Shown here piece after piece: positions 1,148-19,500 of a stretch of DNA of 19,500 nt (position 1 is its first letter; the number at the start of each line of letters is the position of its first letter). The DNA comes from Reclinomonas americana ATCC 50394 (lineage: Eukaryota). The position numbers and the translations under genes were made by a program. Below the pieces are notes generated by a model. It was not told where the DNA came from. It worked only from the letters and a program-made list of their open reading frames with translations, and searched no databases. Location of the stretch: positions 44,567-64,066 of the forward strand of contig PS015213.1 of NCBI GenBank assembly GCA_048213135.1, written 5' to 3'.

Positions 1148-2351
1148 TCAGGCCACGGTGCACACGGAGAGCGTCGGGCACGAGGCCGACGCGGAGCAGT
1201 ACGACGGAAGCGCAAAGATGCTGCCATTGATCGGGTCGGTCTTGTACCTGTGTTTGCAGAGGCCAGTGTCAGCTAGCAGCAGGGAGAGAAGGCGGAGGAA
1301 CAAGAGACCGCCGTGTATGCGCAACGTCTGCGGGTTGAACTCAAAAAGGTCATTCGGCGCCATGTCGAGCCTGCATACAATGGTGCGACGTTCTTCAGCT
1401 GCAATTGCAGAGTATACCCTCGACCCTTTTGACCACACGCAACTCCACCGGCACGTTCGAGTCCACGGTGGCATAGTAAAAGTTGTCTTGCAGACCCTGC
1501 ACAGTCGACAATCAGCGCCTGCAAGGCCCCCCTGTTCCCTCACCATGTCTTGCGCAGACCTTCTGGTTCCACTTGTTGGTCATGTAGCCGCCAATCTGCT
1601 GCGTTCCGAGGTACTGTGCACCATGGAGCCAGTCGCGGCGAATGGTACCGCAGCCCTTGGCATCGTTGCAGCACGCGCAGCACGACTTGAGCTCGGGGAA
1701 CACGAGATATCGCATGCCGGCGACCACCAGGTGCGTGCAATTCGTGTTGGTGAGCCTGCGTCGTCGCACAAGTGAGAGACGCACGGAGGAGTGAGTGTGA
1801 GAGAGAGAGAAAAAGGCAGAGCAGGCGCAACGGGTGAATGCTTCCGCAATCTGTGTTGTTGCTGCATCAGCTCACGTGAACCTCCAACAAACGCAAAGAA
1901 AGAGGAGAGGAGACGCAACAGCGGTCGTGGCGGCCATTGGCGCGGTCAATGCGCGTGTAGTTGTGCACCTAATGCCCACCAAAAAAAGAACTTGAGAAGA
2001 CAGACAGCGAGACTCCGGGGGGGAGGCACACAATGCACTCACCGCATCATACCACCACGTTCCTGTCGTCGTGTGACTGCCACCAATGATCTTGGTGGTC
2101 TCGCTAAAGTCTGCGGTGGGTGGAGGAGCCAAGTGAGAAACACGCACGCACGCACGCACACGCACACGGAGACACACTCGCTCACCAATCTGGAAAAACG
2201 CAGGCCACACAGGCGCGTCGGGGTCGCCCAAGGCCAGCGCATGCTCGAGCTCACCCGCAGCCGCCTGCTCCACCAGCAAAGTGCTGGTGAACACCAGTGC
2301 AAACACGCAGGCGAGCGCGAGGAAGAGAAGCGAGGTGCTCTGGCGCGACAT
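1148..2351 (-). CDS. Secreted cysteine-rich protein, probably ependymin-related (EPDR/LolA-like fold) protist family
   Basis: 8 exons: 2351-2186, 2110-2043, 1968-1920, 1850-1832, 1755-1560, 1496-1444, 1370-1326, 1247-1148. A signal peptide is followed by APVWPAFFQIDFSE..TTTGTWWYDA..TRIDRANGRHDRYCGS..NCTHLVVAGMRYLVFPELKSCCACCNDAKGCG..W..AQYLG..W..GLQDNFYY..P..IFALPSYC. The CDS is firm; the family is inferred from the P..P..F / G..YD / F.LP..C pattern. Confidence 0.7.
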
Positions 2352-2443
2352 TTTTGTTGTCAAGTAAAGAATGATAAGATGTTCCGCGCGGGTCAACGGA
2401 GGACACAAGACTCGTCACTTGACGCACAGGCAGTCAGAGGTCG
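2352..2443. promoter_or_regulatory. Putative bidirectional promoter between the secreted-protein gene and PRIMPOL
   Basis: 92-bp head-to-head spacer with a local AT-rich patch (ttttgttgtcaagtaaagaatgataag). Inferred from gene geometry only. Confidence 0.45.
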
Positions 2444-4552
2444 ATGTCGCATGTGCTGCGTGTGACTCTTGACCAGCGACGAGCGGCGTATCATGCCAAG
2501 CGGTGAGCTGTGTGTGTCGAGATGGAAACCTTACACAAATCCTCTTCTCACACTCACGCTCGTGCAGGCGACTGTGGCAGGAGTTTGGTACGCAAAAGGA
2601 GGCGTTTGAGTATGCCGACGAGCATGCAGCGCAGTGCTTGTATTTCACGTATGAGGATGGCGATGAGGATGGCGTGAGGTATGAGGATCGCAGTGTTGCA
2701 TGCATGCATGCATGCATGCAGGCAGGGCTTCTCATCACCACATGCAGGCGTTTCCTGGTCACCACGGTGGTGGATCTGTGGTTTCGATACAAGAGCATTC
2801 CAGTGGTGCGACGACTTGTCTCTGATCTCATGCACGGCAGTCTCCTTCTCATCGCATGTTGGCGCGCACAGTCACGGCGCCATTTCTACGAGATCATTCG
2901 CGAGGGGATGCCGTGCTGCTTGTACATTGATGCCGAGTACATGCGAGACTCTGCGCCGTTGCGTCAAGTGCTGTTGTGCTGCTGTGATCGGCGACGGCTG
3001 CTGATGGAGAAGCAGTGTCGAGTGGCTGGACGCGGGTCATCCGCGACGCGTGTGCGAGGTGCTGGTGGAGGCCGCCATCCGAGCGTTTGCCGATCTGTTT
3101 GCTGTGGAGTGTTCTCGGTGCGCGCACACGTCTCTTCACGTCGCTTCCGCGTTCGCTGTCGTCACTCGGGCGCTTCGCAGCTCGCATGTCATTGTGTTGG
3201 ACTCGTCGACACCGGAAAAGTTCTCTCGCCATCTGATCTTTCGCGTGCCTGGCGTGGCGTTTGCGTCCAACGTGCATGGTGCGCGCGCTTCGGCCCTGTG
3301 CTGCTCTCCTCAGTGTTGACTGAACCCTCGCGCGCGCAGTCGGTCGCTTTGTGACGGCGCTGCTTCGACGAGTGCCGGAGACGCAGCGGCCGCTGTTGCA
3401 GCACGACATGCAGTGGATTGTCGATGCGGCAGTGTACACGCGCAACCGCAACTTTCGGGTGTGGGGATCGAGCAAGTATGGGCATGCGGCGACAGTTACG
3501 CGGCGCACTACCGTGGTGGCAATCGCAGACGGCTTTGCTGATCTTTGCCAAAAAAAAAACACGCAGTTGTGTCGCGACGACGACTGCGCATACGACATGT
3601 CGGCCATTCGCGACGAGGAGCCGTACTTGGCGATGGAGCAGGATGCCGAGTACTTTGCCGCCTCACTGGTCACCTATTTTCCGCGTGCGCATCGTCGCTC
3701 GTGGCGCCTCCTCGAGCTGCCCGAGTCAACGTTGCGCGAAGACGCAGAGAAGTTCACGAGTGCACTGCCGCGTGGTCTCCTCTCGCGCTTCGTGTGGGGC
3801 TCAGCATTTGCCGCCGAGTCCACTGGAGCACAGTCGGGTGTGGAGTCTGTGTCGCCCTTTCCGCAACTCGACGAGTACGTGATGCAGACCATGGTGGTGC
3901 CGGTGGCCGGAGGTCGCTCGGTGAGAGGCGGAGGAAGGTTGTTGTTGCACGCTCTTCAACAGGAGCTCTCACCCTTCGCCTCCTTCTCTCTCTCTAGGTC
4001 TCGTTTCGGTCGTGGCAGCTGTCGCCGAGCACACGAACGCTGACGCTGGCAGTCGCCGGCTCGCGTTACTGCCGCAATGTTGGTCGCGAGCACAGGAGCA
4101 ACGGCGTGTATCTCGTGTGTGACTTGGGGTTGCGTGGCATTTTTTCGTTATGCTCTATTCGATGTGCGCTCAACAAGCATTGTGGCTTCAGTCGCGGACA
4201 CGTTGTGCAGCGCTGCTGGGACCCCGACTGTCACGGATTCAGTTCAGGTGCTGCTTGTGTTTTCGACATGAGAAAGAGTGTGCTTGTTTTGCTGATTACG
4301 GCGTGACAGCACCGGTGTTGATCCCGCCGGGCCTGCTGCCGCCAGAGTACGTTGTCCGTCAGCCCGACACGATTTCGCTGGAATTTGGTTTGCGCACACG
4401 CACAGGCTCGTTGTGCTCACCTCAGTGGTTCTCACTTCCGATCACACGCAGGTGCGCTGACGGACGACGATCTGCAAGCCATCGACGCAGTGTTTGCAAC
4501 ACAGCTCGAGCGCCGTCACAGGCAGCTGCAGGTCAGCCGCCCACTTGAGTAA
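2444..4552 (+). CDS. PRIMPOL: DNA primase-polymerase PrimPol (AEP catalytic domain plus UL52-type Zn finger)
   Basis: About 11 exons. The spliced protein has RRFLVTT, HFYEIIREGMPCCLYIDAEY (motif I DxE), KFSRHLIF (motif II SxH), VDAAVYTRNRNFRVWGSSKYG (motif III), SPFPQLD, and the Zn finger RYCRNVGREHRSNGVY..QRCWDPDC. Stop TAA at 4550-4552. Confidence 0.95.
2697..2720. repeat. (TGCA)6 self-complementary microsatellite inside a PrimPol intron
   Basis: Read directly: tgcatgcatgcatgcatgcatgca. Confidence 0.9.
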
Positions 4553-4651
4553 TGTGCATTCATCTTCACTCACTTTCCGAAGCTGACACAGGCTGACAGC
4601 AGCTACGCCATGCAAGATGACGAGGAGGAGCAAGAAGGAGATTGATCTTGC

Positions 4652-5623
4652 CTATCCGCTGCCTGCGTGCTGCTCCACCACCGCAAGTCCGTCGGCAAAG
4701 GTGGACACTACAGTGCCGCACTCGTGCCGGATGAAGCGCCGAAAGGCCGCCAGTGACTCCTGCCAAGATGATGGGTCAGCGTGTGGCTGACGAAAAATGA
4801 GACAGTGGCCCGACGGATTTACCGCTTCGACTCGCTTCTCGATGTCTGCGTTGCCGCTGATGGCCAGAGCGGATGCATCGGGCATCAGCAACGCATCGAG
4901 AGCCGCATCCAGAGCGCGCCAGTTGCCAATGGCGATGACCGGGAGTGGTCGTCGTGGCGCGTCAGAATCATCGCTCGTGCTGTTGAGGAAGGTTTCGACA
5001 CTGCGCAATCGCCGTGTGAAGACTACCGGTGTGCTGTGTATTGCTGGGCAGGAGAACGTACCGCTCTTGCACAGCAGCTGGCGTTACTGCCGAGGGACCG
5101 TCGCCTCCTCGTGTGTGGTTCACTACGAAAATTGGTGGGCGAAGTGAATAACTTCGAACACCGCGAACGCATTTGTACCTATGAGAAGCACAGGGCGTGC
5201 GAAAACTCGAACACTCTGTTGAATGGTGTGCAGTGGCAGCACACTGTCGAGCCGCTGTGCACGCCATCTCAGTGAGCACATCACCATGTCAACCACTTCG
5301 CCATGTCAGCAATACCTCTTCCACATTGCTGTCGTCAACGCTTTCGTCCTCCACCATCACCACTCGACGCACCTGCGCCAGGTCCACCAAGCACAAACCG
5401 AGCCCATGCGTCGGCAGAATCAAGTGTGCGTCGCGAATAGTCTCCGACACTGCACGAATTGAAGTTGCGGGTTGTTCCGACCAGTCGACCAATCTCCATC
5501 ATGCAACTCACCTCGCACCACGCGGAAACGCTTCTCCAGCGCGGACTTGACCTCCCAGAAGAGTGGCGAGGAAGAGGCGAGGATCGCCGGCTCTGATCGC
5601 AAAGTCGATTCCTGGTGTTGCAT
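4652..5623 (-). CDS. SPO16/SCRE (C1orf146)/PTD-like protein with an ERCC1-like inactive nuclease fold
   Basis: About 6 exons. The spliced N-terminus AILASSSPLFWEVKSALEKRFRVVRVSETIRDAHLILPTHGLGLCLVD closely parallels my recollection of vertebrate C1orf146 ([48 protein letters not shown]). Later come PVLLIV and ..QERVETFL..LPVIAIGN. Stop TAG at 4652-4654. Confidence 0.65.
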
Positions 5624-5682
5624 GATTTTCTCTGTTCTCTCACGAGCACAAACTACAAACTTTTCAGAGGACAACTCGTTCA

Positions 5683-7444
5683 CTACGTTGACGCCGGTGC
5701 AATGTCGACTCTCATGTTGACATATGAGATCGAGTCCTTGTTCGTGTAGGGATTCGTTCCGGCGTACCCGGCTGTCCGGCCGGGCACCTTGGTCAGCGTG
5801 ACCCTGAATTGCACGGGGTCCGTCTCGAACGTGAAGGCGCTTGTAAATCTGTGCGTGAGTGCGTGTTGTACATGTGAGGTACTCGATGAGGTGTGCGATA
5901 TGCGAGAAGCGGACGGAACGAGTCGTCGCGGGCGTCGACCAGACTCGTGGACACGGCGACGAATTCGTGTTGCGCGTCGTCGGGACCGTCGGGCGAGTTG
6001 AAAATGTTGGCCGACCTGCAGCACCACCACAGGAGAATGGATTCAGTTGGAAGGCGGGAAAGACATGCATGTACGACGCAAGACTCACGTCAGCGCGCGA
6101 ATGTGGCGTTCGCGTCCCAACAGTGGCGACTGCGACGATCGAGGGAGGTGTGAGCAGAAAAAGTCAACGAAGCAAAGACTTGCTATCACACACGCACCTT
6201 CCACGGCGCAAACTCGACTACGCCCGTCTTCAGATGGATTCGGTCATCTTGCGTGAGGTACGTCATGGAGGCATTGTCGAGGGCGAAGCCGCGCGGGTTG
6301 GAGCGCTCGGTGGCGGCCGTGATGTTGATGAAGATGCCGCCACCAGCACCGACCACAACACCCACTGGATCCGGCGAATTCACTCCAACAATCACCAGCG
6401 CCGTGTCCTCGTCCATGCCCACTGCAAACTGCGAGCCACGCGGCAAATATCGTGTGTCCCATGCCAGGCGCAGGAGGCGACCTGTGGCGCAGCAGTCTGT
6501 GTGAATCACTCCTCTCCAGCCACATCGCCACGACACGCGCTTCACCTTGACGGCCTCGCGGTGCCACGTGCGTGTCGAGCAGGCCCCACGGGAACGACGG
6601 AATGCCACCCTCCGGCACATACACCACCGTGTAGGGATGCGTTTGCTTCCCGTACACTTCCGCCCCATCCAGCAGCGCATCCCACGAGTAGCCGCCCTCC
6701 ACCATCACCTTGGCCGTCTGCACAGCGGTGCCGGCGGAGCTGCCAGAGATCACGGCGCCAGCCTGCTGGAACCGGTCCATGATGGCCTGCAGCACCGGCG
6801 ACACCACACGCTGTCCACTGTCGTCTGTGTTGTAAAACGACGACACAATGCGGATCTGATCGCCGCCGGAGAAGAAGAAGCCGGTGCATTGCTGCGCAAT
6901 GTGCACCACATCGGGGTTGGAGTTGTTGGCGCGGTGCTGCATGTCGACGGGAATCCAGTGCACCGCCGCCGGGTGATACGACAGGAAAATCTCCTGCATG
7001 GCCTCCCATGCAGAAGGCTGGTGGTGTGGTGCAGTGAGTCACACGAGCAAGAGAGGGGAGAGGAAGGGGTGGACGTACTGGATCAATGTCGGCGGCGGTG
7101 ATCACACCAATGACTGCAGCGCCCTTGCCGCCGGCCAAGTCGACAATCTGTTGGATGATCAAGGGCTGGTCGTCCTGTTATGTGCGCAGTGCATGCATGT
7201 GCATGTGTGCATGTGAGAGAGAGAGAGGGACAGGCAAGGAGAGTACTTGTGTGCATGCACGTACCCAGTCGCCCGAGGGACCGCCGATCAACACGAGTGA
7301 GCCTGCGCGCGGAGCCGATGATGCTTGCGCCTGCTGGTGCCACCCGTACGCACAGAAGATCACCACGCTGGCCGTGAGCACGCATGAGAGCATGAGCACC
7401 AGTCGCACGTGTGGCGACGTGGTGACGGCGCCGCCCGAGTACAT
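5683..7444 (-). CDS. Cyanophycinase-like serine peptidase (peptidase S51) with N-terminal signal or anchor
   Basis: 7 exons. A hydrophobic N-terminus precedes SLVLIGG, VIGVITAA, GFFFSGGDQIRI, VISGSSAG (catalytic Ser), LLDTHVAPRGRQGRL (catalytic His region) and AVGMDEDTALV (Glu). A C-terminal extension ends ..YVNMRVDIAPAST*. Confidence 0.88.
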
Positions 7445-7522
7445 CGCGAGAAGATTATGATTATCGATATCTCGGAAATTTGCTTCACTCAGTCTTTCTC
7501 TCTCCGTGCACGTGAGAGGAGC
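7445..7522. promoter_or_regulatory. Putative bidirectional promoter between the cyanophycinase and unknown genes
   Basis: 78-bp head-to-head spacer, AT-rich (gattatgattatcgatatc..aaattt). Inferred from geometry. Confidence 0.45.
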
Positions 7523-9064
7523 ATGTCGAGTGGCTCCTCGTCAAGCGATGCCGCAGAGGGTGGTCACTCTCGCTCTGTCGATGGACCAGAGGATGTCTTC
7601 CCACTGCTCCTGGAGGCGCTCAAGACACGCGACATGGAAGGCGTGCTTCGACTCATGCCTCGTGTGCAGACGCATCACCGACTTGCTGTCGACTGTCTCG
7701 TGGTGCGTGCGTGTTACTATGGCAGCTGCAGCGCGTCCATGCACCTTGTGTCACCCCTGTTACTCCTCAGGAAGCATCTCGGCGGCACGTCTACAGTGCA
7801 ATGCGCATTCTGATCCGTTTCGTTCCTTACGGTGTGGTCGCCGTCGTTCGTCTCGCTCTTTAGAGTGCATCAGCAGCGTCTCAGTGTTTCATAGATGCGA
7901 GGCTATTCATCGAATGCCTTGCTGCACTGCGAGAGATGGCAAGAGGCTGCGCTCAAAGAACTGACTTCAGTGCCGATCAGTTGCCCGGAGACTTGCGACC
8001 TCGTGCTGAACTTCGACGTGTGCTCAGAGCCCGACATCGTGCCGCGTCAGCTCCAGCTCCCGGCCGCGGTGTGCCGTCATCCAACTCATCCAACCGCAGT
8101 TCGAAATCGTCGTCCACTTCAACCTCCACACATCGCAGCCATGGTTCCGGCTCTGCAGGCTCCGGCTCGGGGCGCGCGCCTGCCGAAGACGAGGTCTGTT
8201 CCTCACGTGTGGTGTACATGTGTTTGTTGAGTGCTGACGATGTTGCATGCGTGCAGGATTCGGAGGAAGACATGCTGGCAACAATCCGCGAGCTGACGCG
8301 GAGTGAGTTCACTACTCACATGGGCCAGCACATTCCGGAACGGGCAGTGCTGGTCTCCATGATCAAGAGGGACGACGACGACTACTGGTGTCGGGTCAAT
8401 GCCGGCGGTGGACCAAGCGTCAGGATCGCACGCCAACCGAGTACACAGGAGCAGGCGTTTTGCCACCTTCACATGGTTTTGTGATCATGTGTGCTCCTTC
8501 CACGCAGTGCATGAAGAGTCTTATGTGGCCTACCAGGTTCCCTACACCGTATACGATGCTGTCACGGGTTTACCAAAAGGCTTCATCGACGAAACGGGTG
8601 CCTACCACCACAAGGGCTACGGGAGCCAACGCGTCACGGCGACGATGGTGGAGAGATTCCTGGAGTCTTGTCTCGAGAACGGCCGACAGCAGAGCTCCCA
8701 GGCAGCACTGTTTCTCCGTCTCTGGCGTCAAGCACCGCGGAAGTTCCTGTCTGCAGGTTTTCACAGTCACCGCGACGATCCGCTCCACATCACTGTCTGC
8801 CTCCTGGATTGGGGCCAGTGGCACATCTATCCGGTTCCTGCCTCTGGTGCGGCTGTCAAGGGCAACAGGAAGTTTTTCCCTCTGATGCCGGGATCGAAGA
8901 GCCTTTACATGCTCAATCGAATCACCGGCGGCCGTGTGGTCCGCTGTCGTGGTGGGAGCCTCTTCAAGGCCTTATTCAAAATCGACGAGGAATCCGTGTC
9001 GGCATTAGAGGGTGGAATGGACATCGAAGCCTACTGTGTCGCACGCTTCAAGCTTGAGCTGTAG
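7523..9064 (+). CDS. Hypothetical protein: helical N-terminus, Ser-rich linker, globular C-terminal domain with a H-x-H..HIT..HIY motif
   Basis: ATG at 7523, donors at 7703, ~8194 and ~8441 with good acceptors. The last exon (~8508-9064) is long and open and ends in TAG. Exon boundaries around 7815-7895 are uncertain. Confidence 0.7.
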
Positions 9065-9114
9065 TTAATATTGAAAATGCCTGCCAACTGTCGTCGAAGG
9101 AAACATGCAATCAT

Positions 9115-10731
9115 TCATTCTTCACCACCACCACTTCCACCCTCGCCTCCACCACCACCCACAACTGGCAGGCTCGACGCCGAGAGCTTGCGCCAGAGAT
9201 GCTCGCTGCTGCGCACGGTCTCGTACTTTGGCGGGTGCTCATCATCGACACACGATGGGAGGCAGGAGACGACGGTGTCTGGCGACGGCCCCGTGAAGAA
9301 CACAATGGAGATGCGGTCGTTGCCGCGGTCGGGCGACGATGGCGGCAGCGCCACGCGATGCATGTTGGAGACGAAGCGATCGTTGGTCCACAGCTGCGAA
9401 GATTGGTGACGATTGCTTCAGCTGCCACGCACACAACACACACAGGAGTCTCTTCACGGAGCGAACCTGAATGAGATCGCCGCAGTTGACGGTGAAGCCG
9501 CCCTTGATTGGCGGGCAGTCGATGAACTCGCCGTCGGGCATCAACACCTGCAGTCCGCCCGGTGCGTCATCTTGCCGCAGAATGGTGTATCCTGCATTGA
9601 TCACAGCGAGTTCACGAGGCTTGTGTTATCGAGGAAACTGGACGGCATGCGCAAGCAGTGTGTGTACCTTCGTAATCCGTGTGCTCGCCGTACCGAAGCT
9701 GCATCGTCGTGGACAATCAGGTGAGTGTAACGCGGAGGCAGCCATCAATTGCTCAATCGCCAAACCTGTCTTGGCAGCGCCTGTGAGGGCTCCACGTGCG
9801 GGTAGTGAGCCAGTCGCAGAGAGCAGCTTGGTTGTGTGAAGAAGGGCTCGAAAAAGTCGCGGGGCATATCGAGAGCCAACGCAGTCAGCTCCATCATGGT
9901 GTGCAACAGCCGCGTCATCTCCGCCCAGTACTCGTACACTGCGTGCAGTGCGATTGTGAGGCAGACACACGCACAGAGAGAGTGAGTGGGAGAGGGAGAG
10001 CACGCTGGCGCACTTGTCTCCTTGTACCCAGCAGGTGTTTCCGGAATAACATCGGTGGGTTTGTGATGCACCTCGATGCTCTCCACCAAGTCGGCCGGTC
10101 GCACTGGCGTTGCCGTGGCCAGTGGCTGTGGATCAACACAATCAACAAAGCGTGCTCCCAAGTCGAGGCAACAAAGGAGAAACTTTTCCATCGGCGGCAC
10201 TCTGCGTGGCGCTGACTTGTTCGACTCCCTGCGGCACGTATCCTACGCAAGGCGCGATATTAGCGTTCTACCAACCGTGTAGGTCGCAAACGCCCTTCTC
10301 ATGCACACCTCCATATCCGTAGCTGCGAAAACGCGCAGAGTCAGTGAGGTGGACGATCAACTCCGAACACGGTCACCACTCACCCTTTCCCGAGGTTGGA
10401 CCGCTGCTTTTCCTCGAGTGGAAGTGAGAAGAACTCTTGCGCCACGCCGTATACACGTTCTTGCAACTCGTCGGATACTCCATGCCCCACCACATTCGCA
10501 AAGCCAACTGTTGTGCGAGTGAGAAGAGAGATCGAGATGCGATGACGATGCGATGTGATTGGACAACTCACCAGTGGAGAATGCCGCCTTCCACGCAGCA
10601 ATCACCTCCTGCGTCACAGAATGAGGGCACGAGAGGCACACACACACGAGTGAAAGGAAGGCCACCTCTTTCCCAGGCGCGTCATTGACAAATGCTGAGA
10701 TGTCGACGAGAGGAATGCGCTGTGGAGGCAT
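9115..10731 (-). CDS. 2-oxoglutarate/Fe(II)-dependent dioxygenase, IPNS/DIOX family (copy A)
   Basis: 10 exons. Motifs IPLVDIS, VGFANVVGHGV, FFSLPLEEK, LRLAHYP, YGEHTDY (HxD), GGLQV, VNCGDLIQLWTNDRFVSNMHRV (distal His) and RISIVFF (RxS). Confidence 0.93.
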
Positions 10732-10863
10732 GGAACTCTTGAGCTTGGGAAGTCACAAAAGACCAACACAGTCCCCCACTCAACGCACCCACACACGGCT
10801 CATTGGAGACTAGTAATCGGAAAAAACACAACGAGGACAACTGTTGGTCGACGTTCTTTTGTT

Positions 10864-12291
10864 TCACTCGGCGGCGTTCGAGGCGGTGAGCTTGCGCCAC
10901 AGATGATCTCCACTGCGAATGGTCTCGTACTTGGCCGGGTGTTCGGCGTCGACGCACGATGGCAGACACGAGACCACCGTGTCGGGCGAGGGGCCGGTGA
11001 AGAAGACAATCGAGATGCGATCGGTGTCGCGTCCACCGGGTTGCACCGGCGGCAGCGCCACCCGGTGCGTGTTGGAGACGAAGCGGTCGTTGGTCCACAG
11101 TTGAATCAGGTCGCCGGCGTTCACGGTGAAACTGCCACGCAGTGGCGGGCAGTCGATGAATTCTCCGTCGGGCATGCGCACTTGCAGGCCGCCCGGCGCG
11201 TCGTCTTGGCGCAGAATCGTGAACCCTTGCACGCACATCCCCTCGGTGAGCACACGTGAAAACACAAATGCACTGCACGTGTACACACACCTTCGTAGTC
11301 TGTGTGCTCCCCGTACCGCAGTTGGCCAGGCAGCGCATCGGCCGGATCGATATGCGGGTAGTGTGCCAGACGCAACACGCAGCTCGGGTTCTCGGCAAAG
11401 AACGGCGCGAAAAAGTCGCGAGGCATGTCCAGTGTGCACGCCGTGAGCTCCATGAGCGAGTTCAGGAGGCGCGTCATGGCGGCCCAGTACTCTTCCACTG
11501 CGCACAGAGATCAGTGCGCGCACAGCAGAGTGGATTTATGACTCAACAAAGCACGAACTGGTTTCTGCGTATCCCGCCGGTCTCTCGGGGATCACATCGG
11601 CGGGGCGATGATGGTACAGAATGTTCTCCACGAGATCCGCCGGTCTCGGTGGCGTCGCAGTGGCCAGTCGCTGCCAACAATCAATTACTCAGTCATCATG
11701 TCATCGGTCACGAAACGGTGGCATTCATCGCACCGATCCATCTGGAGCCGTCTGCGTGGCACTCACACGCTCCACGCCCTGCGGAATGTACCCTCCGAAG
11801 CCATAGCTATTGCGCCACAGAGTCAGCAGAATGAAGGAGACGCAAGAGAAAGAGAGACTCACCCCTTGCCCAAGTTGTACCGCTGCTTCTCCTCCAGCGG
11901 CAGATCGAAAAAGTCGCGTGCAGCTCTGTACACGCGCTCCTGCAGCTCATCGCCCACCCCGTGTCCCACAATCGTGGCGAACCCGACTAGGGAGAGTCAT
12001 GGATGAATGAGTGTGCATGCAAAACAAAGATGCGAGAATCGCATGATGGACGACGCACCAGTGGAGAATGCCGCATGCCAGGCAGCGATCACTCTCTACA
12101 AACTCGTCGTCAGCAGTCAGCACAGTACGTGCTCTTCACTCACTCACTCACTTGTTTTTCCTCAGCGCTTGCTGCATCATCGATGAATGCCGAAATGTCA
12201 ATCACTGGAATGCTCTGTGTGGCACAGTCAACAACTCAACACTTACAAACGCACACAGAGAAGCACGCACCCACTTCGCCTCGCTGCTCAT
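10864..12291 (-). CDS. 2-oxoglutarate/Fe(II)-dependent dioxygenase, IPNS/DIOX family (copy B, tandem paralogue)
   Basis: 8 exons. Motifs MSSEAKW|SIPVIDISAF, VGFATIVGHGV, LRLAHYP, YGEHTDY, GGLQV, VNAGDLIQLWTNDRFVSNTHRV and RISIVFFTGP. Highly similar to copy A. Confidence 0.93.
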
Positions 12292-12383
12292 CTCAATCCT
12301 GTCACGTTCATTGTCCTGTTTCCATCTTTCTGTCGAGACAACTCGACGTTTCTTTCGTTCACACTCCCGCATCGAGAGAGAAC
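12292..12383. promoter_or_regulatory. Putative bidirectional promoter between dioxygenase B and thiL
   Basis: 92-bp pyrimidine-rich head-to-head spacer. Inferred from geometry. Confidence 0.4.
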
Positions 12384-13936
12384 ATGTCGGCATCAGCAGC
12401 TGCAGCCGCCACCTCGTCCTCCTCATGGACACCAGAGACCACGCTGCGCGAGGCTGGCGGTGAGACACTGCCTGATTACCTTCTCACCTCCTCACTGACC
12501 AATCGCGACTGCTGCAGAGCGCCCGCTGATCGAGCGCCTGCAACAGATCATTGGCGAATCTGCAGGCTGCGGAGGCATGTGGGGCTCGCCACTCGTGCCG
12601 GGACCCGACGATGTGGTGGGAATGCCGCTGGCGATGCGTTCGACGACGACTGTCTCCGTCGGAGAATCAAGTGCGCCACTTGTCGGCTCGCCACCACCGC
12701 TGCCACCGGCTCCGCTCTTTGTCAACACCGACATGCTGGTGTGGTCCACCGATGTGCCACCACTGCCTCGCGGCATGAGCTCTCGCCAGGCGGCGCGCAA
12801 GGCGATTGTCAGCGCCTGCAGTGATCTGATTGTCAAGGGCGTGCAGCCGCAGGCCTTGGTCACCTCGTTGGCGCTGCCGTCCACGATGATGGTGGCGGAC
12901 TTTGACGAGGTCTGTCGGGGACTCGTCGACGGCTGCATCGAACTGGAGGTGTGCTACCTCGGTGGTGACATTAACGAGTGCGCCTCCGACAAGATCATCT
13001 CGGTGACCGCGTGGGGTCAGGCCGAGACGTACATTCCGCGCCGCGGTGCACGCGTCGGCGATGTGATCTTCACCAGTGGCATGTACGGGCGGTGAGTGCG
13101 TGGCGGGCGGCGGCGAGATCCTCCTTTCTCACTCGTGCATGCAGCGAGAGCATCGGCTTGACCTTCATGCTGGACCGCGAACCGGACTTGGCAGTGGACG
13201 AGTTGCGCCTGCGATCGCCATTGCAGTAGAGAGGGAGGCAGATTGGGGAAGAGTGCTAACTCGAGGGGTGCATGTGTTCACAGGTCACTGGAGGAGTGCT
13301 GCGATGCCATTCGGAATCCGACGGTGGAGCGAGACATTGGGCCAGCCATGGCGCGTCTCGGCGTCGCCTCGGCATCGTGTGACACCTCCGATGGCCTGTT
13401 GCGTACGCTGAACGACATGTGTGCGGCGGCAGCGTCGCATGGCGAGGCACCACTGTCGGCGGAGCTGCGTGCCTCGGCGATTCCAGTTGCGTGATCATGC
13501 CGATTCTGTTGCTTGAGCTCCTTTGTCTCTCTCTCTCACTCACCGACACCAACGTGGCAGATCCATCCGGCCGCTCGCAAAGTACGACACGATGATCCGC
13601 GTCGCCTGCTCATCGATGCGCTGCTTGGTGGCGAAGAGGTATCAACCAATCGAGTTGTCACGTCTCGTTCCGATTTTTGTTGTCGGGCCTCTTACCGCAC
13701 CCTCCCAGTTCAATCAAGTGTTTGCCGTGCCGGCCGACCAAGTGCCACTAGTGCGCTCAACATTTGGCGATCGCCTCACGGAGATTGGCGTGTTCGTGGA
13801 CGGCGAGAAGCACGACGGGCTGCTGATTGCCGACGATGGCGAAGCAGTGTCACTCAAGCAATTCGGACTCGGCTTTGCGCACTTCACCGGCGCCGACGTG
13901 ATCGACGAGGGCACTAAAGCATATACTCAAACTTGA
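12384..13936 (+). CDS. thiL: Thiamine-monophosphate kinase (ThiL, PurM/AIRS-like superfamily), archaeal-type
   Basis: 6 exons. Motifs GERPLIERL, GPDD, NTDMLVWSTDVP..GMS..QAARKAIVSACSDLIVKGVQP, LGGDINE, PRRGARVGDVIFTSG.YG, SCDTSDGL, LGGEEF, LTEIG and GFAHF make up the full ThiL series. Confidence 0.9.
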
Positions 13937-16900
13937 AGAGACCCAGCGCCTNNNNNNNNNNNNNNNNNNNNNNNNNNNNNNNNNNNNNNNNNNNNNNNNN
14001 NNNNNNNNNNNNNNNNNNNNNNNNNNNNNNNNNNNNNNNNNNNNNNNNNNNNNNNNNNNNNNNNNNNNNNNNNNNNNNNNNNNNNNNNNNNNNNNNNNNN
14101 NNNNNNNNNNNNNNNNNNNNNNNNNNNNNNNNNNNNNNNNNNNNNNNNNNNNNNNNNNNNNNNNNNNNNNNNNNNNNNNNNNACCCTGTACGAGTCCGCC
14201 GCCGATGCCCACCAGGACTACACTCAGCGACACAATCGACCGCCCAGCAGCATGCTGCTGTGCCTCGTGGCGCTCGGTCGACAGCAGCTGGCAGAGGCCG
14301 AAGAGTTGCGTCCCCTCTCTCTCCCTCCCCCCTCCCTCCTTCTGCCTCACATGCACACAGTGACCCGTTCGGTGACTCGCATGCTCTGCGCATTTCACTG
14401 CCTCCCTTGCGCCAATCTGCACGCCGAGGCTCCACGTCTGCGCGTGGCAGTGGTGCTGGTGGTGGCAGCGGTGCGGCTGACGAACACGAAGGTCGCACAA
14501 AGTCTGCAACAGCCGGCTTCAAGTACGTGTTGTCGGATCCAGCGCNNNNNNNNNNNNNNNNNNNNNNNNNNNNNNNNNNNNNNNNNNNNNNNNNNNNNNN
14601 NNNNNNNNNNNNNNNNNNNNNNNNNNNNNNNNNNNNNNNNNNNNNNNNNNNNNNNNNNNNNNNNNNNNNNNNNNNNNNNNNNNNNNNNNNNNNNNNNNNN
14701 NNNNNNNNNNNNNNNNNNNNNNNNNNNNNNNNNNNNNNNNNNNNNNNNNNNNNNNNNNNNNNNNNNNNNNNNNNNNNNNNNNNNNNNNNNNNNNNNNNNN
14801 NNNNNNNNNNNNNNNNNNNNNNNNNNNNNNNNNNNNNNNNNNNNNNNNNNNNNNNNNNNNNNNNNNNNNNNNNNNNNNNNNNNNNNNNNNNNNNNNNNNN
14901 NNNNNNNNNNNNNNNNNNNNNNNNNNNNNNNNNNNNNNNNNNNNNNNNNNNNNNNNNNNNNNNNNNNNNNNNNNNNNNNNNNNNNNNNNNNNNNNNNNNN
15001 NNNNNNNNNNNNNNNAGGTCGCGAAACGGAGAAGCCAGAATGGAATACATTCTGCGTGGGGGCGAGGGTGGGAGAGCTGTTCTTTGAGCAGTTGTGGCGC
15101 ACACGATAACACACCTCAATGGTTCGCACATCGGCGACGAAATATAGGCGGCAGGATCGAGTGTCCTCGCCGAGACTTGCCACTTTGGCGAAGAAACGAT
15201 CACGAATGTCGCCCGAGGAGAATGAACACTGCAGCACTGGTAAGAAAAATACTTCGGGGGAAAGGCTTCCGACCACACTGCTGCAACACCTTTTGCACGT
15301 CGAGCACACTGACAGCCGGTGCATCGGACGGAGCCGCGGGATCAAAGCTGGCGCTCACGGCCACGGCGGCCATGGATGCGGTAAACTCGCGCACCGCGTC
15401 CTCCTGCTCCTTGCGCGCTCCACTGCAGGCGTGCCGAAAGAAGAGACACAGCACGTAGGCTCATTAGTTTTATTCCCTTGAGCCACTCTCAGGCGAGGCC
15501 GAGAAAGACTCACCTTGAGGAGGAAGACGAGGAGGAGGAGGCAGTGGTTGGATCGTCGGTTCTCTTCCTGTCGCGCGCAAGCGCGGATGAACGCGATGAG
15601 CTGCCGGACTTGGCGTCGGGCACCGCCGCGCCTGTTTGTACCACGGGCGCGGCCTTGCGAGCTGGGCTGCCGACCACCGGCGGTCGCGCCACGCGCTTGC
15701 TGGCATCGGCCGGTGAGCTAGCCTGCTTGCGATCGCCGGGCGAATCCACCTTGGCCGCCGACGCCTTCAGTGGACTGCCGTCGGCGCTGCTCACCGACGA
15801 GCGCCGACGCAGGGCGGACTCGGGTGGAGGCGTACTGTTGCTGTGCGAGAGCGACTTGGGCGACACCGGTGCCGACAGTGACGACGCTGGAGGTGCGCCT
15901 TCGCTTCCCAGTGGTGTCAGCAGGGGAACCACCAGTGGCGTCGGCACGCCCATGACGAGCGACGAAGTCCACGCGGCGGGTTTGACTGCAGCGGCGGCCT
16001 CCACGCGACCGGCTGTGTAACACAACAATACCCGTGAGTGAAGGCGTGACGGGCAGAGGTGGAGAACAGTCGACGCAACTGCGGCGAATCTCGTCGAGCT
16101 GCGTGCGGAGCAGCACATTGTCTCGCATCAGATGCTCGACTTGCATGTCGCTGTCGACCACCTGTATGCATGCATGCAGTGAGTATCCTCGCCTTTTTGC
16201 CTTGCCAACACCCTCACTCACCCGCTTGCGCAGATACATGATTTCGGCGCGCATGCGCTCCATCATGAACAACTGTTGTGCGTACGCATCCACTTGCTTG
16301 TCGCGCCTGTCAACCCGTCGGTGAGTGCCAACAACACCCATTGGCAAATCTTCGACAGCCGTCATGGCACACGCACCATGCCTTCATGTCGCTCCACTCA
16401 TCGTTGAGCGCCATGTAATCAAACGCCTGTGCCCCGGGTGGCAGACGAGACTGCGAGTCGGGATACGCAGTGTTCCCCATCTTGCACATGAGCAAGCTGC
16501 CGTCCCACTCGTTGCTCACACCCGCGAAGCTGCGTCGCGCAGCGAGTGAGACAGACAGACAGACACACAAAGCGAATGGCAATGGAGTGGGGAGGTGCGC
16601 ACGCACCGATGATTGAGAATGGGATCATCGTTGAAGCCGTTGCGGCGCCAAAAGTTGAGAGAGGTGACATCGGCGTACGTCATGGCCACATCGAAGCTGC
16701 CGACGACTTTCGGATCGGTGGCAATCTACCGCAACTCGCTCCGCGTCAGTCATCGCACCGACGCACACACACATACACACCGATCTGCAGACACACACGC
16801 TCACCGAGAGCAAATGGCTTCCGAGGCGAGCATACTGGTACTTGAGCCGCACACCGACAAGCGTGATTTGCAACACGCGTAACCTCGTGGTGAAGTGCGT

Positions 16901-17815
16901 CGGCCACTCCCACGACACCGCGCCCACAATGCGATGCGTCGCAGTCTGCACACCGCAAGCCCACAATGAGCCAGCGTCAAAGGCACACACACTCATCAAG
17001 ATCAACGAACCACAGCCTCCTGCGCCGTGAACTTGAGCGTTCCCTTGTCTTCCTTGTCAATCACATCTGTGCCGCACGCATAAGCATCACCGCCGCACCG
17101 CGAGCGAGAAACAAACACCGCACCATCTTCCTCCTCCTCCTCTTCCTCATCCTCCTCATCTTCCTCCTCGTCGTCGTCGTCGTCATCGTCGTCTTCTTCT
17201 TCCTCATCCTCGTCTTCCTCTTCCTCATCATCATCGCTGTCCTCATCACTGTCTTCTTCCTCTTCCTCCTCGTCGTCGTCATCATCATCATCGTCCTCCT
17301 TCCGACTCCTCTTCTTCTTCTTCAACCGCATGGCGCCCGTCGGCGACCGCTGCTGTCGATGCGCCCCTCGCCGATGCAGCGACGAAGCCGTTGCCGCGGC
17401 GGCCGCCACCAACCGCTTACTCTGCTGCCTCTCCAACGCCCCTCGCTCCGCCTTGACATCGGCCACCGAGCGCAGATACGCAATCGTCTGCATTTGCCCC
17501 CCGTCCAACATCTCCAGCACCGCCGACAGCTCCAAGTTGGGAAGCACATGATGATACAACTAACGCACGCACGCACACATGAGCGCACACAGGCATGTCT
17601 TCTCCTGCGTGCGCACGCACACTCTCACGCACCGCAGCAATGGCCTCGCGAAGCTCACTCTCAAAGGTGGGGTCGCTGCTTGCCTGTTTGTTGGGCGCCG
17701 GGTACTGGTATGCTGCCACTATGGTGCCACGCACGGACGAGGTGCTGCCTGACTGCTGCTGCTGTTGCTGCTGCTCACTCGCAGGCAGCGTGTGTCGCAG
17801 TGACGCGAGTTCCAT
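13914..17815 (-). CDS. Multidomain protein: poly-Q, basic NLS plus D/E acidic tract, GCN5-like GNAT domain, coiled coil, S/P-rich linker, C-terminal PARP/ART-like domain (part lies on an inverted contig)
   Basis: About 13 exons from ATG 17815. GNAT part: IVGAVSW..VLQITLVGVRLKYQYARLGSHLL..FDVAMTYADVTSLNFWRRNGFNDDPILN..EWDGSLLM. Coiled coil: WRDKQVDAYAQQLFMMERMRAEI. PARP-like part: VLDVQK..IRDRFF..RLYFVADVRTIENVFHSGF..TLYESAADAHQDYT..MLLCLVALG..KYVLSDPAQALGLFKFEY. Confidence 0.78.
13952..14182. other. Assembly gap (N run)
   Basis: Run of N characters. Confidence 1.
14183..14545 (+). other. Gap-flanked contig coding on the + strand; apparently the inverted internal part of the 13914-17815 minus-strand gene
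   Basis: Two + exons (14183-14304 and 14361-14545; intron GTTGCGT..CAG) encode TLYESAADAHQDYT..MLLCLVALG..KYVLSDPA. Both ends join the minus-strand flanks in frame. Confidence 0.8.
14546..15015. other. Assembly gap (N run)
   Basis: Run of N characters. Confidence 1.
17125..17300 (-). repeat. Coding trinucleotide low-complexity tract (GAG/GAC/GAA/GAT) encoding about 58 Asp/Glu-rich residues
   Basis: (TCC/TCG/TCT/TCA)n on the + strand. It translates to EDDDDDDDDEEEEEED.. right after KKKKRSRK. Confidence 0.95.
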
Positions 17816-18118
17816 GACGCAGTGAGAATGGTGGGAGGAATCAAAGGGATCCACGGTCTGCTTCAATGAACGACAAACCGCGGGCCTTACCTGTCTGCTC
17901 TTTCCTCAGTCGCGCACTCGCTACTGTCTCTTCCCTTGCCTCAGTGTGTTGTTCTTGTCCTGGAGTTGCTCCGAAACCCCCTTCCTCTGGTGAGCACACA
18001 CTCATACATGCACAGTCTCAGACAGCAGCGCGTTGTCGCTGCACACACTCACTCTCTGCCTCTGTCTCTGTGATCGCTGTGTGTGTGTCTGTGTCTGATT
18101 ACGCGCGCAGAGAGACGC

Positions 18119-19500
18119 ATGGCATCAACAGGTTCGTTGGCAATTGGTTTCATTTAAAGTGCTCACACTCTTCTCACTCACACGCTCCTTCTCTGTGCTC
18201 TCCAGCAGAGGACGATCAGCTGCTGTGCGCGCGAGAGACCGAACTGGTTTCGTCAACACACACACACGCTCTCTCTCTCCCTCTCTCCCTCACAATACAC
18301 TGATGTCTATTTTCTCGTCATCATCACAGGAGCGGCAAGTGGATGCATTAGCCGACCTGTTTGTCACCAACACCGACTTCCCCGCCACGCAAGTCGCTCT
18401 CCAGCAGTTTGCCCGACCAGTGCGTCCACTCGGCGATCCACTCTTGTCTCTCACTCACATCGGTTGGTGCAGACGGAGGGCAGCAGCGGTGGCGATGCGG
18501 GCGATGCCGAGGCCGAGTTTGCGCAGTTGTATCACGAGGGCGATGCGGTGACTGTGGGTCGCGATCATCGACTTGCCCGTGTTCTCTTTGTCGGTCACAC
18601 GCAGTTTGCGGCGGGCATGTGGCTCGGGGTGGCCACGGCGGAGCGTGATGTGTTGACCAGCAAGCGCACCCCGCACCAGCACGACGGTGAGGTGGACGGT
18701 GTGCGGTACTTTGCGTGTCCACCAGGGCACGGAGCCTTTGTGAAACCGTCGTCGGTGGCGCTTCTGTGGGCCGATGTTGCGTGTATGTGCGCCCGATCGT
18801 TTGGGGCAATGAGTCGCTGAACGACTGTGCGTGCGTGCACACAGAACTCCAAGCGCGACTTTTGGGGCCTGTACCACGCGCACGCGCGCCTTTCGCTGGC
18901 GCTGCTGCAGCGCACGGTGGCGGCATTGGGTATGTCGGACGCCGATGGATCTCATGTGCGCGAAGGCTGGCGGCGCGAGATGAGATTTCGTGTGCGTGAG
19001 TTGACATCGTTGTTGGAGTTTGCCGCCGACCTCATCAGCATCGGCGAGCTGGAGGCACTCACGCACCTGCTGGAGCCGTTTGTGCCCGCTGCCATGAGTG
19101 CCAAGTGTGCCGAGGCCCTGGAGAAGCGCGAGGAGCTGAACGAGGCTGTGATTGACATTGCGGCGACACATGCACAATTGTCGTCGCCAACTCGCTTCGT
19201 CAACAAGGTACGCGTGCACCGACGCCATGCATGCCAGTTGTGGATGTCCTTCCATTCACACACGTGCGTGTTGCGTCGTCTGCAGTTCGACTCCGAGTTT
19301 GACACGATGCGCCTGCTGTACGCCGAGCGCGGAATTGTGCGACACGAGCAGTACCTCGCGCCGCCGCTGAGCAGCAGCCGATCGTCACTCTCTCCCCCGA
19401 CCTCCAAGGATGGATCGCCGATCGCGTCAACTCCAGGCTCTCCGCGACGGACTGCGGCCGCAGCAGCTGCGGTAAGTGTGTTTCCATTTCTCTCTCTCTC
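18119..19500 (+). CDS. CAP-Gly domain protein (microtubule-associated), 3'-truncated by window edge
   Basis: The spliced product is MASTAEDDQLL..RQVDALADLF..GDAVTVG..ARVLFVGHTQFAAGMWLGV..HQHDGEVDGVRYFACPPGHGAFVKPSSV, a classic CAP-Gly. Helical and S/P-rich segments follow. The last visible donor is GTAAGT at ~19472. Confidence 0.85.

Follow-up and report, generated by a model that had tools for sequence, protein, structure and literature searches.

Genes and introns of the window

The stretch analysed here (the window: 19.5 kb, positions 44,567 to 64,066 of contig PS015213.1 in assembly GCA_048213135.1 of Reclinomonas americana ATCC 50394) is G+C-rich (about 58%), is interrupted by N runs at 13952-14182 and 14546-15015, and accommodates 12 gene models with 73 complete introns. 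The subject of this report is a discrete type of 5' splice site (donor) among these introns, which starts with GTTGCG or, in its wider form, with GTTNCG. Pfam assigned g1 to PIG-L, g3 to PrimPol-like proteins with a zinc finger of the Herpes_UL52 type, the tandem genes g7a and g7b to the 2OG-Fe(II) oxygenases, and g11 to the CAP-Gly proteins. The g8 gene (12384-13936, plus strand) codes for a ThiL-like protein of the AIR synthase family, as indicated by Pfam and by homologues, and g5 resembles peptidase S51 according to a weak Pfam match and, at the family level, Atlas. The product of g2 is a secreted protein; the sole relative found is a protein of Naegleria lovaniensis, P0001. No family was assigned to g4 and g6, g10 is a long gene, and g9 is a gene fragment flanked by the two N runs. 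The least certain models are those of g4, g6 and g9.

Gene models were curated by eye from three-frame translations and then set by coordinates; two codon-usage dynamic-programming gene finders without splice-site models were used for a first pass only, their output being noisy. The intron set is accordingly one derived from reading frames and homology in our own models of a single 19.5-kb window. None of the 12 models has an internal stop in its translation. Their introns measure 52-91 nucleotides (nt; median 67), number about six per gene, and end in CAG (61), TAG (11) or AAG (1).

Frequency and placement of GTTNCG donors

GTTGCG was the most frequent donor hexamer of the window, opening 11 of the 73 introns, followed by GTGAGT (10) and GTGCGT (8). 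Together with single introns beginning with GTTACG, GTTCCG and GTTTCG, the class, whose start can be written as GTT-N-CG-(T/C), comprises 14 of the 73 donors, i.e. about 15-19% of the introns (Table 1). The original prediction, made from the letters of the same stretch, had listed 11 GTTGCG(T/C) introns and five related donors, and had regarded them as a major class of roughly 15-20%. All of its coordinates and strands recurred in our models, the 11 introns all end in CAG, and the proportion (11/73 for GTTGCG, 14/73 for GTTNCG) agrees with its estimate; the observation itself is thus confirmed, while its interpretation is partly supported.

Table 1. Introns with GTTNCG donors, and two further introns with related donors
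Donor	Coordinates	Strand	Length (nt)	Phase	Gene	Consequence of retention, and other features
GTTGCGC	1248..1325	-	78	2	g2	rests on homology, because in frame without stop; ends ACACAG
GTTGCGT	1371..1443	-	73	2	g2	frameshift and stop
GTTGCGC	1756..1831	-	76	2	g2	frameshift
GTTGCGT	1851..1919	-	69	1	g2	in-frame stop; ends ACACAG
GTTGCGT	2958..3015	+	58	2	g3 (PrimPol-like)	frameshift
GTTGCGT	4129..4191	+	63	2	g3	in frame without stop; within the UL52-type zinc finger
GTTGCGC	13202..13283	+	82	2	g8 (ThiL-like)	frameshift and stop
GTTGCGT	13486..13560	+	75	0	g8	in-frame stop
GTTGCGT	14305..14360	+	56		g9	C+T-rich body, CTCAC motif and acceptor; ends ACACAG
GTTGCGT	16013..16079	-	67	1	g10	frameshift; ends ACACAG
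GTTGCGT	18776..18844	+	69	0	g11 (CAP-Gly)	in-frame stop; ends ACACAG
GTTACGC	3495..3566	+	72	0	g3	in frame without stop; body (ten-A run, then CACGCAG) and PrimPol layout
GTTCCGT	5849..5919	-	71	2	g5 (peptidase S51-like)	frameshift
GTTTCGT	18247..18329	+	83	0	g11	frameshift and stop
GTTTGCG	4388..4451	+	64		g3	not of the class; G at +5 and -1
GTCTGCG	1497..1559	-	63		g2	not of the class; G at +5 and -1; junction gapless against P0001

As a word, GTTGCG is not enriched: the window contains 22 copies on both strands, as compared to 20.9 +/- 5.0 expected from 200 dinucleotide-preserving shuffles, 90 of which contained at least 22 copies. The gene spans hold 1280 GT sites on the sense strand, of which 73 are donors; yet 11 of the 16 sense-strand GTTGCG copies (hypergeometric p=3.4e-11) and 14 of the 28 sense-strand GTTNCG copies (p=2.3e-11) are donors. 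The other GTTGCG copies are located in exons (3), inside introns (2) and on the antisense strand (6). Since the count is near expectation, it is the placement of the word, and not its abundance, that is non-random.

A pattern of this kind might arise from the modelling itself, if GT...AG pairs had been picked because they mend the frame and if some or many of them are not introns. Three of the 14 class introns (1248-1325, 3495-3566 and 4129-4191) are indeed in frame without stops, the g9 fragment is open in both frames, and the models of the naive gene finders were noisy. However, a random choice among the GT sites would give about one GTTGCG donor in 73 (16 of 1280 sites), not 11; the homologues confirm exon order and spacing in g2, g8 and g3; and the base at -1, which was not used for choosing donors, nevertheless separates the class from the other introns (see below). 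The other 11 class introns are demanded by the frame or by an in-frame stop. We therefore regard a modelling artefact as highly improbable.

In other respects the class is inconspicuous. All 14 members start with GT and end in CAG. The GTTGCG introns are 56-82 nt long (median of the other introns, 65.5 nt), and the G+C content of class introns, 0.557, compares with 0.548 in the others. A YTNAY motif is located 8-45 nt from the 3' end in eight of the 11 GTTGCG introns; it is missing from ten of the 62 other introns. Phase 2 is in excess (8/14 versus 13/59, p=0.018). Judged by these properties, the class introns are most likely ordinary U2-type GT-AG introns with a discrete 5' splice-site type. 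U12-type introns have the consensus RTATCCTT at the 5' end and a branch site, TCCTTAAC, near the 3' end. An assignment to this type was rejected, as the class starts with GTTNCG and shares its CTCAC, CTGAC and CTGAT motifs with other introns of the window. A faint resemblance to U12-type signals was seen in an intron outside the class, the last one of g8 (13639-13708, plus strand), which starts with GTATCAACC and contains CTCTTAC some 15 nt upstream of its CAG.

Position of the cut

In 11 of 11 GTTGCG introns, the reading frame would also be kept if cleavage occurred three nt downstream, before GCG, so that GTT would be exonic and the introns would be of the GC-AG type. The original prediction had itself named this outcome as one that would overturn it. 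Homology was informative at seven of the junctions, and it disfavoured the downstream cut at all seven.

In g2, the model with GT donors aligned with P0001 at a score of 535, without a gap over the stretch that comprises all four of its class introns as well as the GTCTGCG intron. Moving a single donor to the GC reduced the score to 524 (1851-1919), 528 (1756-1831), 524 (1371-1443) and 524 (1248-1325), each change inserting one residue, and moving all four together reduced it to 495; retention of the intron gave 163 for 1756-1831 and 499 for 1248-1325. Two of the GTTGCG introns enclose an exon of only 19 nt (1832-1850, minus strand), and the gapless alignment supports both of its junctions.

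The g8 junctions were scored with a profile of 50 ThiL homologues, which gave 201.7 bits for the GT model. At 13202-13283, the score was 200.3 bits with the downstream GC, 194.2 bits with an alternative donor at 13226, and 143.9 bits with the intron retained; at 13486-13560, it was 198.8 bits with the GC and 194.7 bits upon retention. Thus, all six scored junctions prefer GT, those of g2 by 7-11 score units and those of g8 by 1.4 and 2.9 bits.

The seventh junction interrupts the zinc finger of g3. With the GT donor of 4129-4191, the finger reads C-X6-H-X19-C-X4-C; the GC donor would break this spacing by making it X20. The zinc-finger ligands of human PrimPol are C419, H426, C446 and C451, according to the accessible part of PMC4027207; the spacing in the GT model is that of the human protein, which favours the GT cut. 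The exon upstream of the intron is matched by Pfam Herpes_UL52 up to residue 42 of the 43 residues of the model; the Herpes_UL52 coordinates on the read-through translation of g3 did not settle the question, since other indels are present. Neither a word-index search with the 51-residue exon of g3 nor a comparison of the zinc-finger exon with the PDB yielded a match. When representative sequences were searched exhaustively with the 118-residue exon, two matches resulted; they were discarded, both being multi-stretch matches to long unrelated proteins.

Comparison with homologues hence places the cut to one codon in seven of the 11 GTTGCG introns, firmly in four and modestly in three. At 2958, 14305, 16013 and 18776, no homologue excludes the GC cut. 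For the intron at 2958-3015, a homologue resolving the junction to one residue was not found; the in-frame alternative donors within 36 nt of it all score -0.7 bits or less on the canonical donor profile. The intron at 16013-16079 links a coiled-coil exon to a downstream open frame of 205 codons and has no homology at the level of the junction, and the junction of 18776-18844 is not fixed by homology because the CAP_GLY domain stops six residues earlier. The weakest member is 14305-14360, since the read-through frame is open across the whole g9 fragment, for which no homologue was found. Among the three members that do not start with GTTGCG, 3495-3566, being in frame without a stop, is the least certain.

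The donor profile likewise argues against cleavage at the GC. Sites starting with GC score between -2.2 and -11.2 bits, and no in-frame GT or GC alternative located up to 36 nt from a class intron exceeds 5.2 bits, as compared to a mean self-score of 9.05 bits for canonical donors. Moreover, if the cut were made at the GC, all 11 exons would have to end in GTT, and hence in T at -1, which is unlike any other donor of the window; of the 59 ordinary donors, 50 have G at this position. That the class consists of GC-AG introns is thus barely credible, and we infer that the class introns are cut directly before GTT.

Register of donor recognition

Ordinary donors of the window conform to AG/GT(G/A/T)(A/C)G(T/C), the first slash marking the cut. 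A G at +5, described as near-universal in the original prediction, turned out to be less general, as it occurs in only 47 of the 59 donors outside the class. The more telling position is the last base of the exon. G at -1 was found in two of the 14 class donors (18247-18329 being one of them), but in 50 of the 59 others (p=1.1e-6). The contrast persists if the comparison is limited to introns that the frame or a stop demands (1/11 versus 40/48, p=6.5e-6), and if g4, g6 and g9 are left out (p=3.1e-6). The composition of the class at -1 (A6 C4 T2 G2) is similar to that of the 47 canonical donors at -2 (A17 C15 T10 G5), and position +7 of the class resembles position +6 of ordinary donors.

For a comparison of registers, a canonical profile was built from the 47 donors with +5 G, and the +1 column was left out. 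Class donors score -12.1 bits in their true register and +7.9 bits (sd, standard deviation, 1.8) when slid one base downstream, a fit which is, to its disadvantage as evidence, inflated by construction through the three class-defining letters (+3 T, +5 C and +6 G). Canonical donors score 6.6 bits (sd 2.2) in the true register when left out one at a time, and 1197 non-donor GT sites slid by one base score -7.6 bits on average. When only the five free columns (-2, -1, +4, +7 and +8) are considered, the slid register is ahead by 104 bits over the 14 class donors; the same statistic on canonical donors amounts to -6.2 bits per donor.

Two donors that the original prediction had described as shifted by two bases, GTTTGCG at 4388 and GTCTGCG at 1559 (minus strand), have G at both +5 and -1; they thus fit the ordinary register and need no shifted reading. 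Twelve donors outside the class lack +5 G, e.g. those at 4248, 5315 (-), 15289 (-) and 6545 (-), with hexamers such as GTGCTG, GTATTG, GTGTTG, GTGAAG and GTACAC. G precedes the cut in nine of them. The slid register, with scores of -0.5 to -11.4 bits, suits none, and they resemble donors of the ordinary register in which the exon side compensates.

The extra base could alternatively be accommodated as a bulge: G+1 and one U would pair normally with U1, the other U (+2 or +3) would be bulged, and GCGY would take the place of +3 to +6. The original prediction had cited shifted or bulged U1 pairing at rare mammalian sites, an analogy which the exon-side statistics strengthen, and had inferred routine bulged U1/U6 pairing or variant snRNAs (small nuclear RNAs) or splicing factors. 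A bulge explains the intron-side columns +4, +7 and +8 equally well, and the bulge at +2/+3 is an accepted register in humans, with 68 predicted sites, 54 after curation, in the accessible text of PMC4856993. The difference lies on the exon side. As the bulge leaves -1 opposite its usual U1 base, G should stay preferred there; its scarcity in the class favours the shift, and columns -1 and -2 contribute 26.4 and 2.8 bits, respectively, in this direction. A strong intron side by itself does not relax the -1 position, because ordinary GTGCGT donors have G at -1 in seven of eight cases. Of the two modes, the shift is therefore the one borne out, and a bulged register appears quite unlikely.

The best explanation, which we consider moderately probable, is that these are U2-type introns cut before GTT and recognised via U1 pairing that is shifted by one base. 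TNCGY at +3 to +7 would be read as positions +2 to +6 of an ordinary donor of the AG/GTGCGT type, the first G of the intron would substitute for the last G of the exon, and the U at +2 would remain as a single mismatch. The cut would stay at the true G+1, presumably because U6, U5 and the catalytic core fix it at a later stage, as has been proposed for the rare shifted sites of humans; the parts ascribed here to U1 and U6 are inferred.

The class is restricted to one type of donor core. Among ordinary donors, GTGAG (16) and GTGCG (13) are both common, as are A (18) and C (21) at +4. In contrast, GTTGAG does not occur as compared to 11 GTTGCG donors (binomial p=1.5e-4), and there are no GTTNAG as compared to 14 GTTNCG donors (binomial p=1.9e-4). 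The notion that the class represents ordinary donors with one additional base therefore holds insofar as the sequences resemble GTNCG with an extra base, but it applies to the GCG type only. With the textbook 5' end of U1, a C at +4 is a mismatch, so that a shifted GCG duplex should be weaker than a shifted GAG duplex. The absence of GTTGAG suggests a U1 in this organism, or a second U1, whose 5' end is able to pair with C at +4; the shifted duplex would work only if it is G+C-rich, as such pairing would make it.

An alternative to the shift is a dedicated recogniser, i.e. a second U1-like snRNA or a protein factor that matches GUUGCG in the normal register, with nothing shifted. In its favour, the seven-base start is highly uniform, being GTTGCG with T or C as the next base in 11 introns; the GCG type is all-or-none in the class; and the frequency of C at +4 in ordinary donors, as high as that of A, is left unexplained by a standard U1. 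Variant U1 genes and co-evolved snRNAs have been reported in other lineages (accessible parts of PMC3561869 and bioRxiv 10.1101/2022.06.08.495308). A recogniser of this kind, however, gives no reason why the flanks should copy the ordinary profile one base off, with -1 like -2 and +7 like +6. A scan with Rfam at gathering thresholds detected no family within the window, and thus no snRNA gene there, which leaves the idea uncontradicted. On balance, we deem a dedicated recogniser unlikely.

Several points weigh against the shifted register and against the underlying placement of the cut. If the 5' end of U1 is of the standard type, shifted pairing would be weak, with two mismatches (+2 and +5), and GTTGAG, which would be expected to pair better, is absent; a putative peculiarity of U1 must therefore be assumed. 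Nor does a shift predict that CACAG acceptors are over-represented in the class (see below). As to the cut, all junctions are predicted from frames and homology, and those at 2958, 14305, 16013 and 18776 have no support at the level of the junction; they follow from the frame or from stops, and from analogy. The margins by which the g8 homologues prefer GT are small, and in g3, an intron with both ends 14 nt upstream gives the same zinc-finger spacing. The models of g4, g6 and g9, finally, are uncertain.

Tentatively, and with more doubt than for the shift itself, a wider scenario may be proposed: about one fifth of the introns would be recognised via a U1 register one base off the cleavage site, the restriction to GCG would be due to an altered or second U1 pairing with +4 C, recognition would be uncoupled from the choice of the cleavage site genome-wide, and the CACAG preference would hint at cross-talk between the intron ends. 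If so, the organism would offer a natural test bed for the handover from U1 to U6 and U5, which fixes the cut, and a specific change in U1 or U6 would be predicted. As to annotation, donor models that need G at +5 or -1 would then miss or misplace about one sixth of the introns of this genome, and most multi-intron gene models would consequently be broken.

Shifted and bulged registers of U1 have been known from reporter experiments and from a minor share of the splice sites of humans. Human shifted sites are reportedly of the form GU-U-(consensus +3 to +6), as described by Roca and Krainer in 2009. At such 5' splice sites, the whole pairing is moved by one position, with the cut at the true GU, as stated in the accessible parts of PMC4856993 and PMC9311317. 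Like them, the class matches the canonical register badly but the slid one well, the G at +6 playing the part of the +5 G. All validated non-canonical U1 registers together make up 1.5% of 201,541 human sites in the text available for PMC4856993, and the shifted register is a small part of this fraction, unlike the class, which accounts for 14 of 73 introns here. Furthermore, the human sites have an AAG core, unlike the GCG core of the class, which is absent for the A-type core, and they have been proven by suppressor U1 experiments, whereas the class is predicted from sequence. The bulge +2/+3 and the other bulged or asymmetric-loop registers of U1 described by Tan et al. in 2016 (PMC4856993, accessible text) resemble the class in having an extra base between GU and the conserved block; unlike the class, with G at -1 in two of 14 donors, they are predicted to retain -1 G.

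In Mamiellophyceae green algae, AG/GTGCGT is the canonical donor (Verhelst et al. 2013, PMC3879977; Irimia and Roy 2008, PMC2483917; accessible parts of both), so that in other lineages a C at +4 is known as a normal variant. The ordinary donors of our window likewise include AG/GTGCG(T/C), with 13 GTGCG, and the class resembles a version of this donor slid by one base. The Mamiellophyceae are intron-poor outside special regions, and a GTTGCG class is not mentioned in the accessible text of PMC3879977, whereas the window has about six introns per gene; nor do the nearest relatives of its proteins point to a green alga. In the copepod Eurytemora affinis, GA or GG donors are found in about 12% of the introns (PMC5714493, accessible part). 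There, as here, an unusual donor type accounts for at least a tenth of the introns and misleads gene modelling; in E. affinis, however, GT itself is replaced, whereas the class keeps GT and has the rest of the signal displaced by one base. In open-access text, supplements being outside the scope, we found no report of GTTGCG or of a shifted class as a major intron type outside humans. What is new is the scarcity of G at the exon-side -1 position of the class, and the fit of the class, once slid by one base, to the ordinary donor profile.

Acceptors, gene context and origin of the class

The class is also distinguished at the 3' end. Acceptors reading CACAG occur in eight of 14 class introns versus six of the 59 others (p=4e-4), and ACACAG ends in five of the 11 GTTGCG introns versus two of the 62 others (p=5.5e-4). 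The class might therefore have a common origin in an intron-generating mobile element which brought its own ends (GTTGCGY ... CACAG) and needed no AG/G site; this proposal concerns origin and is compatible with a shifted register. Besides the acceptors, it would account for the scarcity of -1 G. The concentration of the class in g2 and g8, where it comprises six of 12 introns, versus eight of 61 elsewhere (p=0.008), points in the same direction, as does ongoing intron turnover in g7a and g7b, which are 77% identical yet differ in four introns. Copies of one element should resemble each other internally, but end-trimmed local scores were 7.78 within the class, 7.76 between the class and other introns, and 7.55 among the others; a mobile intron (introner) family was accordingly rejected, as the cores of class introns resemble each other no more closely than they resemble those of other introns. 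The lengths of the GTTGCG introns are scattered (56 to 82 nt), no target-site duplication was seen on reading the flanks, and g7a and g7b, which are most closely related to bacterial-type genes devoid of introns, contribute none of their 16 introns to the class. Such an origin is very unlikely in our view. A link of the class with horizontally acquired genes, apparent in g2 and g8, likewise fails with the bacterial-like g7a and g7b, as their lack of class introns removes it.

The oxygenase genes g7a (9115-10731, minus strand) and g7b (10864-12291, minus strand) agree in 251 of 324 aligned residues and have exactly five intron positions in common. Introns at 10243-10308, 9699-9765 and 9394-9466 occur in g7a only, and one at 12215-12270 in g7b only, indicating that introns were gained or lost since the duplication. 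Donors may differ even at common positions, e.g. GTTTCT in one copy and GTGCGA in the other. Relatives in metagenome contigs (40 of 80 loci) mostly gave one uninterrupted, nearly full-length match with 33-46% identity and, having no introns, offer no intron positions for comparison. The nearest relatives being of the bacterial type, the intron-rich g7a and g7b may descend from a transferred gene. The g8 gene has five introns, and all 70 relatives found are of the prokaryote type, mostly metagenomic; the few that bear names include archaeal ones. Identities, calculated for part of the exon, are 38-50% for the best 50 relatives and 29-36% for the other 20.

The structure of g6 (7523-9064, plus strand) is ambiguous at 7832-8138, where two open frame paths exist; in the path chosen, the donors are GTCGTT and GTGCCG, both of them odd. 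For the last exon of g6, 202 residues long, neither a Pfam family nor a relative among the metagenome contigs was found. Gene density in the window is extreme: the 12 genes extend over 17.8 of the 19.5 kb, introns total 4.9 kb, and the shortest intergenic spacers measure about 60-100 nt (e.g. 5624-5682 and 1053-1147). The intron at 17560-17632 (minus strand) has two in-frame GTGCGT donors 12 nt apart (17632 and 17620) and one acceptor, and may represent a case of tandem alternative donors.

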